From an uncultured Gammaproteobacteria bacterium (GTDB taxonomy: Bacteria > Pseudomonadota > Gammaproteobacteria > Xanthomonadales > BPKI01), in assembly GCA_964526035.1 (NCBI GenBank), contig CAZGKE010000005.1, positions 1 to 47,570 on the forward strand: a DNA stretch of 47,570 bases, given 5' to 3'. Shown one piece after another: positions 20,939 through 46,364 of this stretch (position 1 is its first letter; each line of letters begins with the position of its first letter). A model generated the notes under the pieces. That model was not told the DNA's origin, searched no databases, and saw nothing but the letters and a program-made list of their open reading frames with translations. Both the position numbers and the translations under genes were made by a program.

Positions 20939-21868
20939 ATGACTTCCCGTTGCCTCCGGATGCATCTGTTGCCGGCTCTCCTGGTCCTGGCGTGGACTCC
21001 TTCCGTGGCACAACAGAACGTCCTGTTCGTCCGGGGCGCCGATCGCTCCGGCGGATTCCTTGAAGCGGGCAACGACGCCGAGCGCACCGAACAGCTCGCC
21101 GACATCTTCAACATGAGCACGTCCGGTGGAAACCACGGCTGGGGCGAACTCCGCCAGGCGCTGGAGGCCGACGGTTACACGGTTGAGCAGATCACCGAGC
21201 AGGCCGAGAACCAGAGCGGTCCTTCGCAGGGAATCGCGGTATCGTTCGAGCAGATGGATCTCTCGCAATATGACGTCATCGTGCTCGGCTCCAACAATGC
21301 CGTCTATGACACGGCCGGCATCGACGCGCTGGAAAACTGGATTCGCGCCGGCGGCGGCGCCCTGTTCATTTCGGATGCCAACTTCGGCAGCGACTGGGCC
21401 GATGCGCCTGATTCCGACCAGCAGTTCCTGGATCGATTCGGTCTGGTGATGAACCAGGATCAGGGGACTTATTCGCTGCGCCGCAGCAGCGGGGACTTCG
21501 CAGTGCCCGACCACCCGATCCTGGTCGGCGTGGACGAATTCGATGGCGAAGGCGTTTCGCCTGTTGTTGCCGTCGATCAGGGAACGGTGCTGGTGGGTGC
21601 CAAGGACAACACCCGCGTCAACGAGCCCCCTTTCGGTGCCAACAACCAGGGCCAGAGCCGTGCGGTCACGCCGCTGGACGCTGCACTTCTGGTGCTTGAA
21701 GCGGATGCCGGACGCCTTGCCGGGCACTTCGACCGCAACACCTTTTTCAACCTCAACGGCGCCGGGACCAGCATCCATCGTTTCGACAACATGACCTACG
21801 CGCTCAACCTGTTTGCCTGGCTCGCCAACCGCGACCTCGACAGCGTCTTTGCCGACGGCTTCGAATAG
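20939..21868 (+). CDS. Secreted acidic protein, class I GATase-like (DUF4350/ThuA-like) fold, GFE tail
   Basis: Signal peptide, LSQYDVIVLG...WIRAGGGALFISD, ends DSVFADGFE. Confidence 0.75.
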   Translation: MTSRCLRMHLLPALLVLAWTPSVAQQNVLFVRGADRSGGFLEAGNDAERTEQLADIFNMSTSGGNHGWGELRQALEADGYTVEQITEQAENQSGPSQGIAVSFEQMDLSQYDVIVLGSNNAVYDTAGIDALENWIRAGGGALFISDANFGSDWADAPDSDQQFLDRFGLVMNQDQGTYSLRRSSGDFAVPDHPILVGVDEFDGEGVSPVVAVDQGTVLVGAKDNTRVNEPPFGANNQGQSRAVTPLDAALLVLEADAGRLAGHFDRNTFFNLNGAGTSIHRFDNMTYALNLFAWLANRDLDSVFADGFE

Positions 21869-38992: not shown

Positions 38993-39607
38993 TCAACCAA
39001 ACGGATTGAAAAGACGCTCCAGGAACTGGCCGGCCACGCGCGGCTCCAGGATCAGGGTAAACAGTACACCATAGCCTGCACCCCACAGGTGCGCGCTGTG
39101 GTTGGTGTTGTCGCGGCCGCGGCGCTCGCTCCAGATCGAGTAGGCCACATACAAGGCGGCAAACACGATGGCCGGCACCGGGATGAAGAACACGAAGATC
39201 AGCGTCCACGGCTGGATCAGGATGAAGGCGAACAGCACCGCAGACACCGCGCCCGAGGCGCCCAGGCTGCGGTAGCCGGTATCGTGGCGGTGCTTCAGGA
39301 AGCTCGGCAGCATGGCGACGATGATGCCGCCGAGATAGAAGGCGACATAGCCCCAAGCGCCGATGTAGGGCTCGAACAGCTGCTCCATGATCGAGCCGAA
39401 GAAGTACAGCGTGATCATGTTGAACAGCAGGTGTCCGCCGTCGGCGTGGATGAAGCCGTGGGTGACGAAGCGGTGGTACTCGCCGCGATTCACCGCCGGC
39501 GGCCAGAAGATCAGCGTGCCGATGATTCGCGGGTTGCCGAAAGCGGCCAGCGAGACCAGGCAGGTGATCAGTATCAGAGCGAGGTTGGGTCCGGCCTCGA
39601 TATTCAC
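38993..39607 (-). CDS. Rhomboid family intramembrane serine protease
   Basis: HLLFNM, GASG, HSAHLWG. Confidence 0.93.
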   Translation of the reverse strand: MNIEAGPNLALILITCLVSLAAFGNPRIIGTLIFWPPAVNRGEYHRFVTHGFIHADGGHLLFNMITLYFFGSIMEQLFEPYIGAWGYVAFYLGGIIVAMLPSFLKHRHDTGYRSLGASGAVSAVLFAFILIQPWTLIFVFFIPVPAIVFAALYVAYSIWSERRGRDNTNHSAHLWGAGYGVLFTLILEPRVAGQFLERLFNPFG

Positions 39608-41605: not shown

Positions 41606-42121
41606 ATGAGAAGCTTCATCGCTGTCGTGGCATTTGTTGCAATTGCTTTGCCCGGTCTGTCCCGGGCCATCGAGAACGTAAGCTACGCGTATGCGGACGT
41701 TTTGCGATCCGACGCGGTCTACGAAACGGTCCGCGTCAGCCGACCCCGTGAAGAGTGTCATGAGGACACCGTGGTGCACCGCGAAGGATCGAGCGGCGCC
41801 GGCGGTGCCGTGGTCGGCGCCATCATCGGCGGCGTGCTCGGCAACCAGGTCGGCAAGGGCAGCGGTCGCGACGCCGCTACAGTCGCGGGCGCCCTGGTCG
41901 GAGGCGCGATCGGCAGCGAAAGCCAGCGTCGCAACAACCCCGAGCGCTACAGCGAATCGGTGCAGACCCGCTGTCGTATCGTCGACGGCTGGGAAGACGA
42001 GCGCCGCATTGCCGCGTTCGATGTCGAATACAGCTATCGCGGTCAGATTTACATGTCACGGCTGCCCTACGACCCGGGTGAGCGTCTGCGCATCCGCGTG
42101 TCAGTGACGCCAGAGGAGTAG
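41606..42121 (+). CDS. Glycine-zipper 2TM protein (YcfJ-like)
   Basis: Signal peptide, GAIIGGVLGNQVGKGSG...GALVGGAIG, YDPG. Confidence 0.88.
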   Translation: MRSFIAVVAFVAIALPGLSRAIENVSYAYADVLRSDAVYETVRVSRPREECHEDTVVHREGSSGAGGAVVGAIIGGVLGNQVGKGSGRDAATVAGALVGGAIGSESQRRNNPERYSESVQTRCRIVDGWEDERRIAAFDVEYSYRGQIYMSRLPYDPGERLRIRVSVTPEE

Positions 42122-42161
42122 GCCGCGGGCGCGCCCGCCGCCCCTGCCCGGTCAGCTGCAC

Positions 42162-44666
42162 TCAATCGACCGGCGTCTCGAATCCGTCGCCGTGTATTGC
42201 CTCGTTCCAGACCTGGAACGCGCGTGGCGGCGACAGCGTCTGGAAGCGTCCATCGTCGTGCAGCACGTCGGCATGCAGGGTAACCGTACCGTGGCCGTCG
42301 GCGATCCAGGTCGCCGCCCAGGGCTTGGTTGATCCTGTCGCCACGATCTGGCGATTTACCCGGTAGTCGACCCGGACGATCTGCGGGAGGTCGCTGTCGA
42401 TGCCGAACGCCACTGGTTGGCCGGCGATGACTTCGATAGCTGCGCCGGGCGTGGTGATCGCGAGCTGCGCCGCGCTGGCCAGAGCAGGCTCCGAGGCGTC
42501 GATCTGCAGCAGAAAAGCGACCAGCTGGTCACGCTCCGGCGGCGTGAGCGTGGCTATGTCGCCGTGCGCGCCGGACGGGTTGCGTTCGACAAGGACTTCG
42601 GACAAGGTGGCTGCGGAGCCGTCGTGAAGATACGGCGCGGACCCGAAGAGGCCGCGCAGGCTGGGCGTATCCAGCGCCAGCAGTTCCTCACCAAGACGCT
42701 GTCCACTCGCTGCACTCAGCGTGCTGACGTCGTGGCGGTAGCCCTGCGGGCTGTCGGTGAAGGCCGGGCCGGCATGGCAGCGATGGCATGACAGCTGCTG
42801 GAACAGCGCGCGGCCGGCGGCCCCGTCGGCAGTCAGGGTTCCGTTGCTGTCGCGGAACGGGGAGCGGTCGTCGCTGCCGAGGCTGGCGACGAAGGCTGCC
42901 AGCGCATCGAGGTCGTCGGAAAATCCTGCCTTGGGCGGTCCCAGCGGGTGATCGCGACCGTCTGCGAAGTAGTCGGCGTCGTCGATGAAGCCAAGGCCGC
43001 CGAAAAGATTGCGGATCGGTGTCTCGAAGTCCTGGATCTCGTCGAAGTTGCCTGTCCAGTGCACCAGGCCGCGCCCCATGCCGGCGTTGCCGAGCAGGCT
43101 GGTGGTGTTGCGCAGGCCTTCACCGAGTTGGCTGAAGTCCCAGACCTGACCATCGCTGCGCCCATCGAGGTGACAGGCTGCACATGAGAAGTAGCCGTCC
43201 TGCCCCATGCGTGTGTCCATGGCGTTGTAGAAGATGCGCTTGCCGTGCAGCACCTCGGCATCCAGCGGTTCGCTGGATGTGCTGGGGACGCTGCCCAGCG
43301 ATTCGATCGGGCTGGTGCCGTCGTCGAGCTGGTCGCCGACCGCGAGCACGCTGACGGCGCGCGACAGGAAGTTCTGTACGAACAGCCGTCGGAGAACCGG
43401 GTCGTACGCAAGGCCACGCGGCGCGCGTCCGACTTCGAGCTCGGTCAGCTGGCGTCGATTCCAGGGATCCAGTACGAGCACGCGGTTGTTGGTTTCCTGG
43501 GCCGCGAACAGGTGGCTCGAACCGGGCGCCAGGAGCAGGGCGGAAACCCGCCCGGCATCGTCGAGGTCCATGCGGTTGGGGACCAGTTCGACCGCAGCGT
43601 CTGCATCGACCCGGCCGACCAGCGAGCGCAGTGAGCTCTCGAAAGTAAGCGGCTGTCCCTCGCGGAACAGCCCGCGCAGGATGTTGTCCTTCTTGCCGCC
43701 GTACCAGAGATGGGCGCCGTCGGCGCTGAGCGCAAGGCTGGCGATGTAGTTGGGCAGGCCACGTGCAGCCGTACCCGAATCAGGCGAGGTGGTGTCCAGC
43801 GCCAACGAGATGTCTTCGGCTTCGTCGAGGGCCGGCAGTGCGATACGCCAGATGCTGCCGTTCTCGCCTTCGCTGACCAGGCGGCTGACGAAGAGCGCGC
43901 CGCCGTCGGCGCGGATTGCCATGGCTTCGACCGGCCCGCCGAGTTGCAGCGCTGCGCCGGGTTCGGCAGTCACCGGATTGAAGCGGCGCACTGCACCCGC
44001 GCCCGCCATCGCGACGTAGCCGTTGCCGGCGCTGTCGAACAGCAGCGCGACTGGGCGCGATCCGTAGCCGAGATCGATGCTGGCGGTGACCGTTCGCGTT
44101 GCCGGATCGACGCGATGTATCGTGTCCGTGCCGGGGCTGTTCACCCAGACTTGGCCTGCGCCATCCAGCGCCAGCGACGAGGGATGGTCGCCGACATCCA
44201 CTTCCGCGACGAGTTCCAGGAGATCGGCATCGAGAACGCCGATGCTGCCGTGGTCGGGGTTGGCCACCCAGACTTCGCGCCGCGCCGGCTGCAGCAGGAT
44301 CGGTCCGGACGCGACCGAAGGTGATGCCGGCGGCATGCGCACCACCAGCACTGCGGTGGCGCTGGCGAGCCCCTGGGTGGCATGGCGCACCTGCACCAGC
44401 AGGGTGAGCACGCCGGCACCCTGGTACGTGTAGGAGATGCTGTTGCTCGGAAGCCATTCGGTGCGCGGCGTACCGTCACCGAACTCCCAGCGGTACTCAA
44501 GGGCACCACCGCCGGGCACGCTTGCCTGCGCGGTGAACTGCACCGGCTGGCCAAGCACCAGCGGCGACGCCGGCACGCTGTCGATGCCCTGGATCTGCAC
44601 CTGCGCCAGCGCAGGCGTGGCGGCAGCCAGGTACAGCAGCGTCAGCAGCATCCGCAGAGTGCGCAT
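42162..44666 (-). CDS. Secreted PKD + YVTN-like propeller + di-heme cytochrome c (bCcP/MauG superfamily) + Ig-like protein
   Basis: YRWEFGDG PKD, WVANPD/VGDHP repeats, CAACH and CHRCH, RNTTSL, TPSLRG..APYLHDGS, tail EAIHGDGFE. Confidence 0.85.
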   Translation of the reverse strand: MRTLRMLLTLLYLAAATPALAQVQIQGIDSVPASPLVLGQPVQFTAQASVPGGGALEYRWEFGDGTPRTEWLPSNSISYTYQGAGVLTLLVQVRHATQGLASATAVLVVRMPPASPSVASGPILLQPARREVWVANPDHGSIGVLDADLLELVAEVDVGDHPSSLALDGAGQVWVNSPGTDTIHRVDPATRTVTASIDLGYGSRPVALLFDSAGNGYVAMAGAGAVRRFNPVTAEPGAALQLGGPVEAMAIRADGGALFVSRLVSEGENGSIWRIALPALDEAEDISLALDTTSPDSGTAARGLPNYIASLALSADGAHLWYGGKKDNILRGLFREGQPLTFESSLRSLVGRVDADAAVELVPNRMDLDDAGRVSALLLAPGSSHLFAAQETNNRVLVLDPWNRRQLTELEVGRAPRGLAYDPVLRRLFVQNFLSRAVSVLAVGDQLDDGTSPIESLGSVPSTSSEPLDAEVLHGKRIFYNAMDTRMGQDGYFSCAACHLDGRSDGQVWDFSQLGEGLRNTTSLLGNAGMGRGLVHWTGNFDEIQDFETPIRNLFGGLGFIDDADYFADGRDHPLGPPKAGFSDDLDALAAFVASLGSDDRSPFRDSNGTLTADGAAGRALFQQLSCHRCHAGPAFTDSPQGYRHDVSTLSAASGQRLGEELLALDTPSLRGLFGSAPYLHDGSAATLSEVLVERNPSGAHGDIATLTPPERDQLVAFLLQIDASEPALASAAQLAITTPGAAIEVIAGQPVAFGIDSDLPQIVRVDYRVNRQIVATGSTKPWAATWIADGHGTVTLHADVLHDDGRFQTLSPPRAFQVWNEAIHGDGFETPVD

Positions 44667-44680
44667 TCCCGGTCGCCGCC

Positions 44681-46111
44681 TCAGGGCTCGAAGCCGTTGC
44701 GGAACAGGTCGTCCGGCTGGATCACGGTGGCGCCGGTGGAGAAGCGGAAGCTGTAGGCGTTGAAGCCGTTGCCGGCGACATCGCGAACGCCGTCCTGAAT
44801 CAGACTGACCTCATAGGTGGTGTCGGCTTGAAGCAGCGCGTCGGGAATGATGTTGACCACCTGATAGCTGGTGTGGATCACCGTGGTCGCCAGCGGTGCG
44901 CCGCCCACCGGGCGCAGCACGATGTTCTGCGACGTCACTGTCGTCGAATCAAGCGTCTCGTTGATGACCAGACCCACCACGGTGTGCAGCGACTGGTGGG
45001 TGTCGTTGTTCAGCGGCAGGTGATAGCCGACCGTGGGTCGGGTGGTGTCGAGGCCGGCCTGATGGGAGAACAGGTAGGAACGCGAGCCGTCGGTTTCGGA
45101 GGACGATGCGAGCACCAGGTGGCCGAGCGGTATCCACTGAAAGTCACCCGCGCAGCAAGGGTTCGGCGTGAACACCTGCGCAACCTGACGCGTTTCCATG
45201 TTGTACTTCCTGCCTTGGTGGAAGCGACCCGCAAACGCGTACTGGTCCTGGAAGTGCACGTAGCGTCCCGGCAGGTCGTCGTAGGGAATGGTGAAGGTGA
45301 GCTGCAGATTGGTCGGGTCGCTGAAATCGATGACCAGGGTATTGGCGTTGCCCTGGGGGCCGTTGGTGTTGTCGCCGAACATCAGCACCAGATAGTGACG
45401 CCAGACCTGCCAGGCATTGGTGTACTGCCGGTAGTTGCCGATGAGCCGGTCCAGCAGCACCGGGGCTGCCGGATTGCTGATGTCGAACACCGCCACGCCG
45501 TCCTGGCTGTCGGAAGGGGTCAGGAACAGCAGGTTGCCCAGGCGCCACTGGTTGGCGCCGTTGGTCATGCTCGCCAGTTCTCGGACGCTGATCTGGGATA
45601 CGTGAGGCCACCAGCCCACCCGTGCGTCGACGATGTTGTCGCCGAAATGGTAGGGATAGGTATCGACCCAGTTGCCCGGCCAGCCCAGCGGCGGTTGCCC
45701 CGAGGGAAAGCTGCCGACATTGGTGGTCTGCTGAGTGGGCGCCAGCATGTTGGACAGGTTCTGGAACGGACGCGAGCTGGAGTCACCGATTTCCGGAATC
45801 CAGTAGGCGCGCCAGAACACGTCGCCGACCTTGACCCAGGAGTGTCCGTTGACGCCGGTGGCGACGGTGCGCACCAGTTGCGGCGAGGCGGCGTTGGCGA
45901 TGTTGTACGTCCAGGTGCCCTGACCATCGGTGCCGCCGAGATAGAGATAGCCGCGATGGAACGTGGTGATGCGGCCACCGTGGTTCCACATCGAGACCTG
46001 GGTGCCGGCGGGCCAGGTCTGGGTGGGCAGGCCCTGGGCCGATGCTTCGGCCGTGCAGAGGAGGAAGAGCGCGGCCAGGGCGGCCGGGCGCATCGGTCGT
46101 TTCATGAGCAT
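44681..46111 (-). CDS. Secreted LVIVD-like repeat + Big_5-like Ig domain protein
   Basis: Signal peptide, repeats VAVFDISNPAAP / LVIDFSDPTN / TYNIANAASP, DTTRPTV...VRDVAGN...FRFSTG, tail DDLFRNGFEP. Confidence 0.8.
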   Translation of the reverse strand: MLMKRPMRPAALAALFLLCTAEASAQGLPTQTWPAGTQVSMWNHGGRITTFHRGYLYLGGTDGQGTWTYNIANAASPQLVRTVATGVNGHSWVKVGDVFWRAYWIPEIGDSSSRPFQNLSNMLAPTQQTTNVGSFPSGQPPLGWPGNWVDTYPYHFGDNIVDARVGWWPHVSQISVRELASMTNGANQWRLGNLLFLTPSDSQDGVAVFDISNPAAPVLLDRLIGNYRQYTNAWQVWRHYLVLMFGDNTNGPQGNANTLVIDFSDPTNLQLTFTIPYDDLPGRYVHFQDQYAFAGRFHQGRKYNMETRQVAQVFTPNPCCAGDFQWIPLGHLVLASSSETDGSRSYLFSHQAGLDTTRPTVGYHLPLNNDTHQSLHTVVGLVINETLDSTTVTSQNIVLRPVGGAPLATTVIHTSYQVVNIIPDALLQADTTYEVSLIQDGVRDVAGNGFNAYSFRFSTGATVIQPDDLFRNGFEP

Positions 46112-46364
46112 GGCTCCCTCGAAGAGTGACGTGCCTGGTTACAACCCGGGTTGGCGTTCAGACCGGCCACCTGCGGCACGCTCTGTTGCCCTCCCGGCGC
46201 GACGCCCCCTGAGCGAAGGACCGGTTCGGTCGCCGACCATGCTAGCTGCCACCCCAATCGCGTCAAGGCCGCCAGACCCGGGAAAGACCACCGTCCGTCC
46301 ATGCGTCAGGGACTTGCCCGCGCGCCCCTTTTCCGTTTCCCGACCTTGTGCCACACTCCGCCCC

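Follow-up and report, generated by a model that had tools for sequence, protein, structure and literature searches.

The closest described relatives of the element considered here are the sortase-type signals - PEP-CTERM with exosortase, GlyGly-CTERM with rhombosortase, IPTL-CTERM, MYXO-CTERM and LPXTG with sortase - in which one lineage-restricted signature marks dozens of unrelated exported proteins. The type IX secretion system (T9SS) of Bacteroidota also uses a C-terminal signal that lacks a transmembrane (TM) helix and is found on many secreted enzymes and adhesins; there it takes the form of a folded domain, roughly 70-100 residues long. Shorter elements are known among the tags that dock as a strand or hairpin, as in donor-strand exchange in pili, PDZ beta-finger ligands and isopeptide tag/catcher pairs, and these are hydrophobic-acidic, sit at either terminus and carry a reactive or turn-forming D or N. 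Type II secretion system (T2SS) signals are held to be structural rather than linear (PMC7949064, accessible text), and in Vibrio cholerae the PDZ domain of the GspC protein EpsC is needed for a subset of substrates only, the near-C-terminal determinant in VesB being a folded Ig-like domain (PMC12369372, accessible text). Here we report on a short peptide, the GFE tag, which came to light at the C-terminal ends of three gene products encoded by a 47,570-nucleotide stretch of DNA (the window; contig CAZGKE010000005.1 of assembly GCA_964526035.1) from an uncultured member of the Gammaproteobacteria. In this one genome, 71 exported proteins end in [IVL]-F-x-[DN]-G-F-E plus 0-6 further residues. 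The tag is real and terminal and is specific both to exported proteins and to one order; judged by analogy with the systems above, it has the look of an address label for sorting proteins that has not been described before.

The genome assembly comprises 3.66 Mb in 276 contigs at 66% GC, and the window is its contig C5. By regular expression, 74 ORFs end in the motif, three of which (on C47, C64 and C74) were unconvincing and were dropped. Counted back from the invariant Gly, the remaining 71 proteins have I, V, L or M at position -4 (31, 23, 14 and 3 cases), F, H, M or Y at -3 (65, 2, 2 and 2), most often A, R, G or S at -2 (26, 13, 9 and 7) and D, N or S at -1 (53, 16 and 2), followed by G, F and then E (70 cases) or D (one), with an upstream preference for P/G at -7 and D/E/G at -6. 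Nothing follows the E in 26 proteins, while 15, 8, 10, 7, 2 and 3 proteins carry one, two, three, four, five and six more residues, respectively; this tail is proline-rich and in none of the 71 is it hydrophobic enough for a TM helix, which bears out the helix-free consensus proposed in the initial annotation. The last residue is thus E in 26/71, the others being mostly P, G, Q, N, D or A. In the genome as a whole, the tag is carried by about 2% of predicted proteins.

The preference for the end of the protein is also apparent from six-frame translation: among stop-to-stop frames of at least 60 aa from the whole genome, [DN]GF[ED] falls 0-4 residues before the stop in 64 of 183 cases, and the full motif does so in 25 of 33, with 3 more at 5-9 residues. 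In the DNA of the whole genome the pattern TTYNNNRAYGGNTTYGAR has 74 matches (66 of them with at most nine codons left before the stop) versus 0 for the reversed control pattern. The codons that spell the tag vary freely from gene to gene and the 80 bases downstream of tagged genes are not shared, the commonest 10-mer there occurring in 3/71, so selection must act on the peptide rather than on a DNA element; the tag is under purifying selection, and a DNA repeat as its origin was rejected on the grounds of the same free codons and unshared downstream DNA. Two tagged proteins, L011 (C14:30049-31704; IFCDGFEAAGCP) and L040 (C59:17383-17574; IFCDGFENFSCP), have one Cys at -2 and another in the tail, which suggests from the letters a disulfide-closed loop that would display D-G-F-E; codons for F-C-D-G-F-E are present in other genomes of the order, too.

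Within the window, the three ORFs singled out by the initial annotation were confirmed in position and ending, and each has a signal-peptide-like N-terminus according to a home-made heuristic. ORF1 (20939-21868, + strand; 309 aa) begins with a predicted signal peptide (20939-21013, +; end approximate, heuristic call, hydrophobic core LLPALLVLA, then SVAQQ), continues with a ThuA/DUF4350-like body whose Pfam matches are weak and under the cut-offs, and ends DSVFADGFE; its tag core V-F-A-D-G-F-E lies at 21845-21865 (+; DNA pattern match 21848-21865), immediately ahead of the stop codon (21866-21868). ORF2 (42162-44666, - strand; 834 aa) combines a signal peptide with PKD, a beta-propeller-like region, a di-haem peroxidase-like region (CCP_MauG-like in Pfam) and Big_7, and its product ends in AIHGDGFETPVD before the stop; the core I-H-G-D-G-F-E (42177-42197, -), with the rare H at -3 (2/71), is followed by TPVD. 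ORF3 (44681-46111, - strand; 476 aa) has a signal peptide, LVIVD and Big_5 and ends DDLFRNGFEP, the core L-F-R-N-G-F-E (44687-44707, -; DNA pattern match 44687-44704) being followed by a single P and the stop.

The three bodies had been called unrelated, and their Pfam contents do differ, but ORF2 and ORF3 are halves of an architecture that exists fused in two paralogs of the same genome. These paralogs, L015 (C16:29000-33064) and L033 (C35:21747-25976), are single proteins of ~1400 aa with LVIVD/Big_5, PKD, propeller and di-haem peroxidase-like parts, collinear with ORF3 plus ORF2 at 31-38% identity; ORF3 matches their N-terminal third and ORF2 their C-terminal two thirds. No tag is found in the fused proteins at the place that corresponds to the ORF3/ORF2 junction. 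In the split form, the new C-terminus (ORF3) has a tag and the downstream half (ORF2) starts with a new signal peptide, each separately exported polypeptide of the pair thereby having a tag of its own.

Orthologs of ORF1 are limited to four other sampled genomes, located elsewhere in the order, and they conserve the position of the tag even though the stretch that links it to the last helix is different in each; the ortholog from g7, a tag-poor genus, has the invariant Gly replaced. In a modest AF2 model of ORF1 (5-sequence alignment, mean pLDDT 64, pTM 0.73), residues 301-309 have pLDDT values <50 and no secondary structure; the tag tail is thus predicted to be flexible. The codons of the ORF3 tag are unaltered by two nearby strain variants (44677 and 44714), and both window stops are covered, unchanged, by contigs that come from four DNA runs of a single study; these runs probably are the source of the assembly and hence not independent of it. 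For 42100-46200, no RNA run was listed.

The check for export that the initial annotation had proposed, a regular expression over the proteome followed by a test for signal peptides, showed an enrichment. With the loose version of our crude heuristic, signal peptides were called for 50/51 tagged versus 1091/2432 other ORFs and with the strict version for 36/51 versus 530/2432 (odds ratio 8.6, p 3e-13). Tagged proteins appear to be all Sec-exported, and most are enzymes of extracellular or surface type or adhesin-like proteins. The 59 of them in the gene set mostly form singleton families, the largest paralog group having 4 members. Enzyme bodies in Pfam include S8 (subtilases), M36 and M12B peptidases, endonuclease I and an ExeM/NucH-like nuclease; further bodies are PKD, Big, cadherin-like, DUF11, FG-GAP, beta-helix, LTD, CotH, BNR, GSDH and CCP_MauG-like. 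In none of the 71 proteins is the tail covered by a Pfam or NCBIfam model. One tagged protein, L043 (C62:8870-9817), starts with a prepilin-type N-terminal cleavage/methylation motif rather than a classical signal peptide.

It is the place taken by the tag that makes it look like a sorting label. Choice-of-anchor families are named for the different sorting signals that stand behind them in different lineages, and NCBIfam choice-of-anchor domains occur in 13/71 tagged bodies (Q in 9, D in 2, B and X in 1 each), 12 of them above cut-off: Q in L014, L019, L020, L024, L030, L051, L052, L054 and L070, D in L007, B in L055 and X in L063. The thirteenth, L056, scores 34.4 bits against choice-of-anchor D, below the cut-off of 45. 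In the Q proteins the domain stops 10-20 residues ahead of the tag. A second case is the M36 peptidase L065, which aligns with profile positions 19-781 of 869 of NF038113 (T9SS-dependent M36; 705 bits), in other words with all of the model except the sorting domain, and then has the tag; its two closest relatives, both from Lysobacterales metagenome-assembled genomes (MAGs), end in the tag as well, and relatives in other phyla run on for 300-500 residues. RbtA-like and CSLREA proteins, which elsewhere have other anchors, also end in the tag here. For the CSLREA/beta-helix protein L024, the 120 best homologs include only 2 with a tag end, one of them the query itself; those with a name are for the most part labelled Chloroflexi and have other tails. 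The tag thus stands positionally equivalent to known sorting domains.

The same genome uses a described signal side by side with the tag. Inspection by eye of 85 ORF ends revealed ~16 IPTL-CTERM-like tails ([ILV]P[ED]A..VP, a TM helix and an Arg-rich end), those above the TIGR04174 cut-off being at C65:3715-3792, C52:2495-2572 and C33:17876-17953 (contigs of this genome, G000). One IPTL-CTERM-like tail follows a choice-of-anchor-Q-like end, which in nine other proteins of the genome is where the GFE tag is found. Two further observations concern tails in this position. L024 homologs (P0003-P0025), several of them labelled as Chloroflexi CSLREA/choice-of-anchor Q proteins, have a Thr/Pro-rich linker and a short TM-less tail (for example ..WLYLPLIQK or ..FFVYLPFIVR before the stop); from its letters, this tail may represent a further short tag at the C-terminus, used in a different phylum. 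One tagged family has a homolog, L173 (G078:C1:1052306-1056247), in the tag-free genome G078, and this protein has in place of the tag a 380-residue repeat extension, made up of three tandem repeats of ~125 aa.

The expansion of the tag is confined to one order (Lysobacterales/Xanthomonadales) within the sampled Pseudomonadota, to which the comparison outside the order is restricted (~500 genomes). Among 151 sampled genomes of the same order in the Genome Taxonomy Database (GTDB), 100 have at least 10 pattern matches (median among these 41, maximum 118), the reversed control giving 0-7 per strand. Elsewhere in the class, ~200 genomes that belong to other families have at most 8 matches each (G186 has 5 and G264 has 2), and in a phylum-level sample of 301 the genomes outside the order have at most 13. 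Inside the order, families f1, f3, f4, f8, f9 and f11 are tag-rich, f5 and f10 have 11-14 matches per genome and f7 has low to moderate counts; f2 has hardly any matches outside a single genus (g60; G135, 68 matches), f12 is mixed, with 25 matches in G094 and 0 in G078 of the same genus, and f6 splits by genus into g7 (1-6 matches) and g23 (21-41). The carriers in the order span 42-69% GC. Among 30 matches sampled from five genomes of five families, one of them with 42% GC, 23 lie at most 11 residues from the stop, 3 are behind a signal peptide, 2 are internal, each ahead of a domain of 140-210 aa, and the remaining 2 are unrelated.

The presence of similar tails in Dokdonella- and Tahibacter-like genomes, mentioned in the initial annotation, was confirmed by the labels of sequence records. 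The exact 21-mer for FADGFE plus stop occurs at 41 places in a one-genome-per-species collection, namely in Dokdonella (D. fugitiva strains among them), Tahibacter (T. caeni and one complete Tahibacter genome), Aquimonas, Chiayiivirga, Ahniellaceae, Lysobacterales MAGs and seven records with broader labels. At all 41 sites the frame stays open for 20 codons upstream, and position -4, which the query did not cover, is I, L, V or M. Dokdonella and Tahibacter are thus cultured carriers of the tag.

Measured against the systems named at the outset, the tag resembles sortase-type signals in that one signature is carried by dozens of unrelated exported proteins of a restricted lineage, in that the same choice-of-anchor bodies precede it and in that it alternates with IPTL-CTERM-like tails in one genome. 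It is unlike these TM-anchored signals because it has neither a hydrophobic helix nor a basic cluster, and further differs in having just 0-6 residues after the motif, in occurring also at the N-terminus of mature proteins (see below) and in that no cognate enzyme is known for it or turned up in this genome. The distinctness from LPXTG, PEP-CTERM, GlyGly-CTERM and the T9SS domain that had been claimed from the letters was upheld by model searches and by the composition of the tails. No NCBIfam sorting model matches any of the 71 tagged proteins at E 1e-5 or better, and TIGR04174 (IPTL-CTERM) matches other proteins, never GFE-tagged ones. What follows G-F-E are 0-6 non-hydrophobic residues, unlike in PEP-CTERM; the tails have no helix as in GlyGly-CTERM and neither the motif nor the helix of LPXTG. 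As for T9SS, the tag is a 7-residue peptide in a proteobacterial order, and the alignment of L065 ends at 781/869 before the tag begins; T9SS genes were not part of the searches. An aromatic last residue pattern, as in the beta-signal read by BAM, is not seen in the tagged proteins, whose bodies belong to soluble-domain families. Nor does the tag look like a canonical PDZ ligand, given tails of 0-6 residues, a last residue that is rarely hydrophobic and six N-terminal copies, although a PDZ binding mode that accepts an internal hairpin might be compatible with it. In being short and hydrophobic-acidic, in its use of either terminus and in its D/N of reactive or turn-forming kind, the GFE tag would resemble strand/hairpin docking tags; no catcher domain was identified for it, nor any sign of covalent chemistry. 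A description of the tag was not found in the full-text literature searched (subscription journals and supplements lay outside it) nor in current Pfam/NCBIfam, and a string search in the accessible text of the Haft myxosortase preprint (10.1101/2023.06.07.544157) returned no GFE, IPTL, Xanthomon or Lysobacter.

The C-terminal location stressed in the initial annotation applies to most copies, not to all: 8/74 DNA-pattern matches are elsewhere, six behind a signal peptide and two internal. The six N-terminal copies sit 0-3 residues past the predicted signal-peptidase site, in front of bodies that include DUF1800, DUF1996 and beta-helix, and the two internal ones lie between domains, in one case ahead of an Lcl_C domain. 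The motif hence tags the termini of mature proteins, for the most part the C-terminus, and the N-terminal and rare inter-domain copies make a mechanism that needs a free carboxyl end unlikely.

Taken together with its position, these properties would fit a tag that serves as a post-Sec address or docking label, read by some envelope component conserved in the order, and we put the chances for this about even, by analogy with known sorting signals. On this model, a short autonomous terminal peptide, [P/G]-[D/E]-x-[IVL]-F-x-[DN]-G-F-E plus 0-6 residues, would label each polypeptide individually and act after Sec export; its flexible, exposed end would present a tight [DN]-G turn between two phenylalanines, and the envelope component would recognise this end and route the folded protein out of the periplasm and/or hold it at the surface. 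Such a label would work from either end of the mature protein, with no need for a free carboxylate. A more specific version, in which the tag is the signal of an undescribed Lysobacterales sorting pathway with ~40-120 clients per genome and with either a T2SS or a surface 'catcher' as its reader, we offer tentatively, as possible rather than probable. If it were true and the reader were a T2SS, the tag would be the first linear T2SS signal.

Several points weigh against an address label. Searches by candidate family and by gene neighbourhood found no receptor, enzyme or transporter for the tag, which is why the word 'sorting' rests on the analogy of position; of the dedicated export or anchoring pathway that had been suggested at the start, for instance by way of beta-strand addition to an outer-membrane partner, the exported proteins and the sorting-domain position are thus in evidence and the dedicated machinery is not. 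No recurrent machinery gene adjoins the tagged genes, some tagged families are usually periplasmic (PQQ/GSDH dehydrogenases, di-haem peroxidase-like, DUF1800), and signal peptides and gene starts were called by crude home-made heuristics. A second T2SS was the sole system found to be co-distributed with the tag, but the match breaks down in either direction (see below), and the correlation may reflect lifestyle rather than mechanism.

As for candidate machinery, the Omp85 family has three copies in the genome and shows nothing unusual. The rhombosortase model TIGR03902 gave sub-threshold rhomboid matches only (41.5 and 30.3 bits versus a cut-off of 84), and a rhomboid-family gene with the 41.5-bit match lies in the window itself (39056-39514, - strand). 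An exosortase homolog (C197, 231 bits) and two sortase homologs (C45, C65) are present in the genome, and no TM-bearing target for either was found among the tagged proteins. At C25:21736-24989 (L205:1739-4989), a VIT + VWA protein has behind it an ORF of 311 aa that lacks Pfam matches, an arrangement that we take to resemble the one-to-one 'marine proteobacterial sortase target' pair; the sortase matches lie elsewhere. The genes that recur beside tagged genes are solely pairs of an ECF sigma factor and a Ser/Thr kinase-TPR protein, with CHAT-TPR, a transglutaminase-like protein and a Wzy_C protein as single cases. Such pairs, of an ECF-type sigma factor and a large Ser/Thr kinase-TPR (or CHAT-TPR) protein, often adjoin tagged genes (C16:33096-36712, C19:28811-29413, C86:7607-8515, C14:20273-25011 and C143:4383-8795), and they suggest dedicated regulation of these exported proteins.

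Alternatively, the tag might have no reader at all and be a terminal cap, a tight turn that protects exported ends from the cell's own secreted peptidases or aids folding and that has spread by descent and convergence. This would account for its occurrence at either end of the mature protein, always a few residues from the terminus, for the many secreted peptidases that carriers encode, for the failure to find machinery and for tag numbers that in some lineages fall gradually instead of switching on or off. Yet seven near-invariant positions, kept throughout an order whose carriers differ widely in GC content, exceed what a cap would need; the tag occupies the exact place of true sorting domains in other lineages and in the same genome; and its near-complete loss in g7, along with the decay of the invariant Gly, looks like the loss of a partner. 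The tail is, moreover, predicted to be flexible and not packed. We therefore regard a cap as unlikely, albeit the least so of the alternatives to an address label.

Slightly more doubtful is a processing site, at which an endopeptidase or transpeptidase would cut after D/N and release G-F-E with the tail, thereby maturing the protein or attaching it to the surface. Such a site would agree with the alternation of D and N at one position (53 and 16 of 71) beside an invariant Gly, with the short and variable residues past G-F-E, as expected of a leaving group, and with a motif found at either end and rarely between domains; in the N-terminal copies, the cut would expose the amino end of G-F-E. 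[DN]-G-F also agrees with what asparaginyl endopeptidases and ligases prefer at P1-P1'-P2', although D, which dominates in the tag, is a poorer substrate than N for these enzymes. One C13 peptidase gene exists in the genome. However, the distribution of Peptidase_C13 (PF01650) is unrelated to tag counts, with hits in 0/8 f3, 0/17 f6, 0/17 f7, 1/17 f9 and 17/17 f12 genomes. Processing by a legumain-type Peptidase_C13 was rejected in view of its absence from tag-rich genomes of f3, f6 and f9 and its presence in tag-free genomes of f12, and no other candidate enzyme was found. A co-occurring protease, one of the partners that phylogenetic profiling had been meant to reveal, is thus not seen in C13, and the only candidate for the transporter it was also meant to reveal is the second T2SS, which tracks the tag with exceptions.

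This second T2SS leads to the idea that the tag is a linear T2SS targeting signal whose terminal hairpin would bind in the PDZ domain of GspC or in the secretin vestibule, an explanation that we judge improbable. The genome has three secretins, and the locus in question encodes GspC (with T2SSC and PDZ domains), GspD, GspE and GspF (C69:12209-16657, with GspF on C31:1571-2767). It consists of GspC-D-E-F only, with no adjacent pseudopilin genes, is conserved between rho/trxA and ftsEX and has been lost from most of f2, f7 and f12. When orthologs of the C69-type secretin are defined by E 1e-100 or better, the secretin and at least 10 tag matches coincide in 94 of the 151 genomes and are both missing in 41, leaving 10 with the secretin only and 6 with tags only. 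Agreement is perfect inside f12, where G094 has the secretin and its tag-free congener G078 does not, and inside f2, where G135 alone has both; the Xps-type secretin, taken as a control, is present in 147/151 genomes regardless of tags. The subset-specific need for the EpsC PDZ domain in the accessible text of PMC12369372 counts in favour of a T2SS reader as well. That system resembles the present case in its folded periplasmic substrates and in a determinant near the C-terminus that concerns a subset of them, a PDZ-bearing GspC being partly co-distributed with the tag here; the Ig-like determinant described there is nonetheless unlike a linear motif.

The exceptions, though, run both ways. 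In ten genomes, G084 and nine from genus g7, the secretin is retained although each has just 0-2 real tags (4/23 sampled pattern matches there were convincing), and five f7 genomes that lack the secretin carry real terminal tags, 19/30 distinct sampled matches being C-terminal and 1 N-terminal. The IPTL-CTERM signal, present in 111/151 genomes of the order, is missing from most of f2 and f12, much the same lineages, which implies that several envelope traits were lost together. On these three counts we rejected the second T2SS as an obligate partner; support for T2SS targeting, one of the routes first suggested, is hence partial and non-specific. We likewise set aside a PDZ loop deletion in GspC of the tag-poor g7, since it is a trait of family f6 that is also present in tag-rich G028 and so tracks family rather than tag. 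The tag would also be an atypical PDZ ligand, considering its last residue of E, P or G, its variable tail length and its N-terminal copies. Complex prediction for the GspC PDZ domain (residues 200-304) with the Big_5/tag part of ORF3 (residues 350-476) gave a score of 0.02 (mark 0.32) in a single run, which speaks neither for nor against binding.

Finally, chance or composition, a DNA repeat, mis-assembly or truncated genes, which a fragmented high-GC assembly might invite, can be dismissed as practically negligible in face of the 74 matches versus 0 for the reversed control, the varying codons and unrelated downstream DNA, the same ends in cultured strains and in other families' complete genomes, the aliphatic residue at -4 in 41/41 FADGFE-stop sites elsewhere and the window stops unchanged in contigs of further runs (one study, probably the assembly source).

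Which folded periplasmic proteins leave Gram-negative cells, and how they are chosen, is a long-standing question, and the present case adds to it a genome in which a simple peptide at the terminus, standing in place of sorting domains, is common to ~2% of predicted proteins. The question is directly testable with this motif, which is short enough to be grafted or deleted and has cultured carriers in Dokdonella fugitiva and Tahibacter caeni, while lineages with natural losses (the G094/G078 pair, genus g7 versus g23, and family f7) lend themselves to phylogenetic profiling. If the tag is a label for secretion or display, it would also give workers on Xanthomonadales a compact tool with which to export proteins or display them on the surface.

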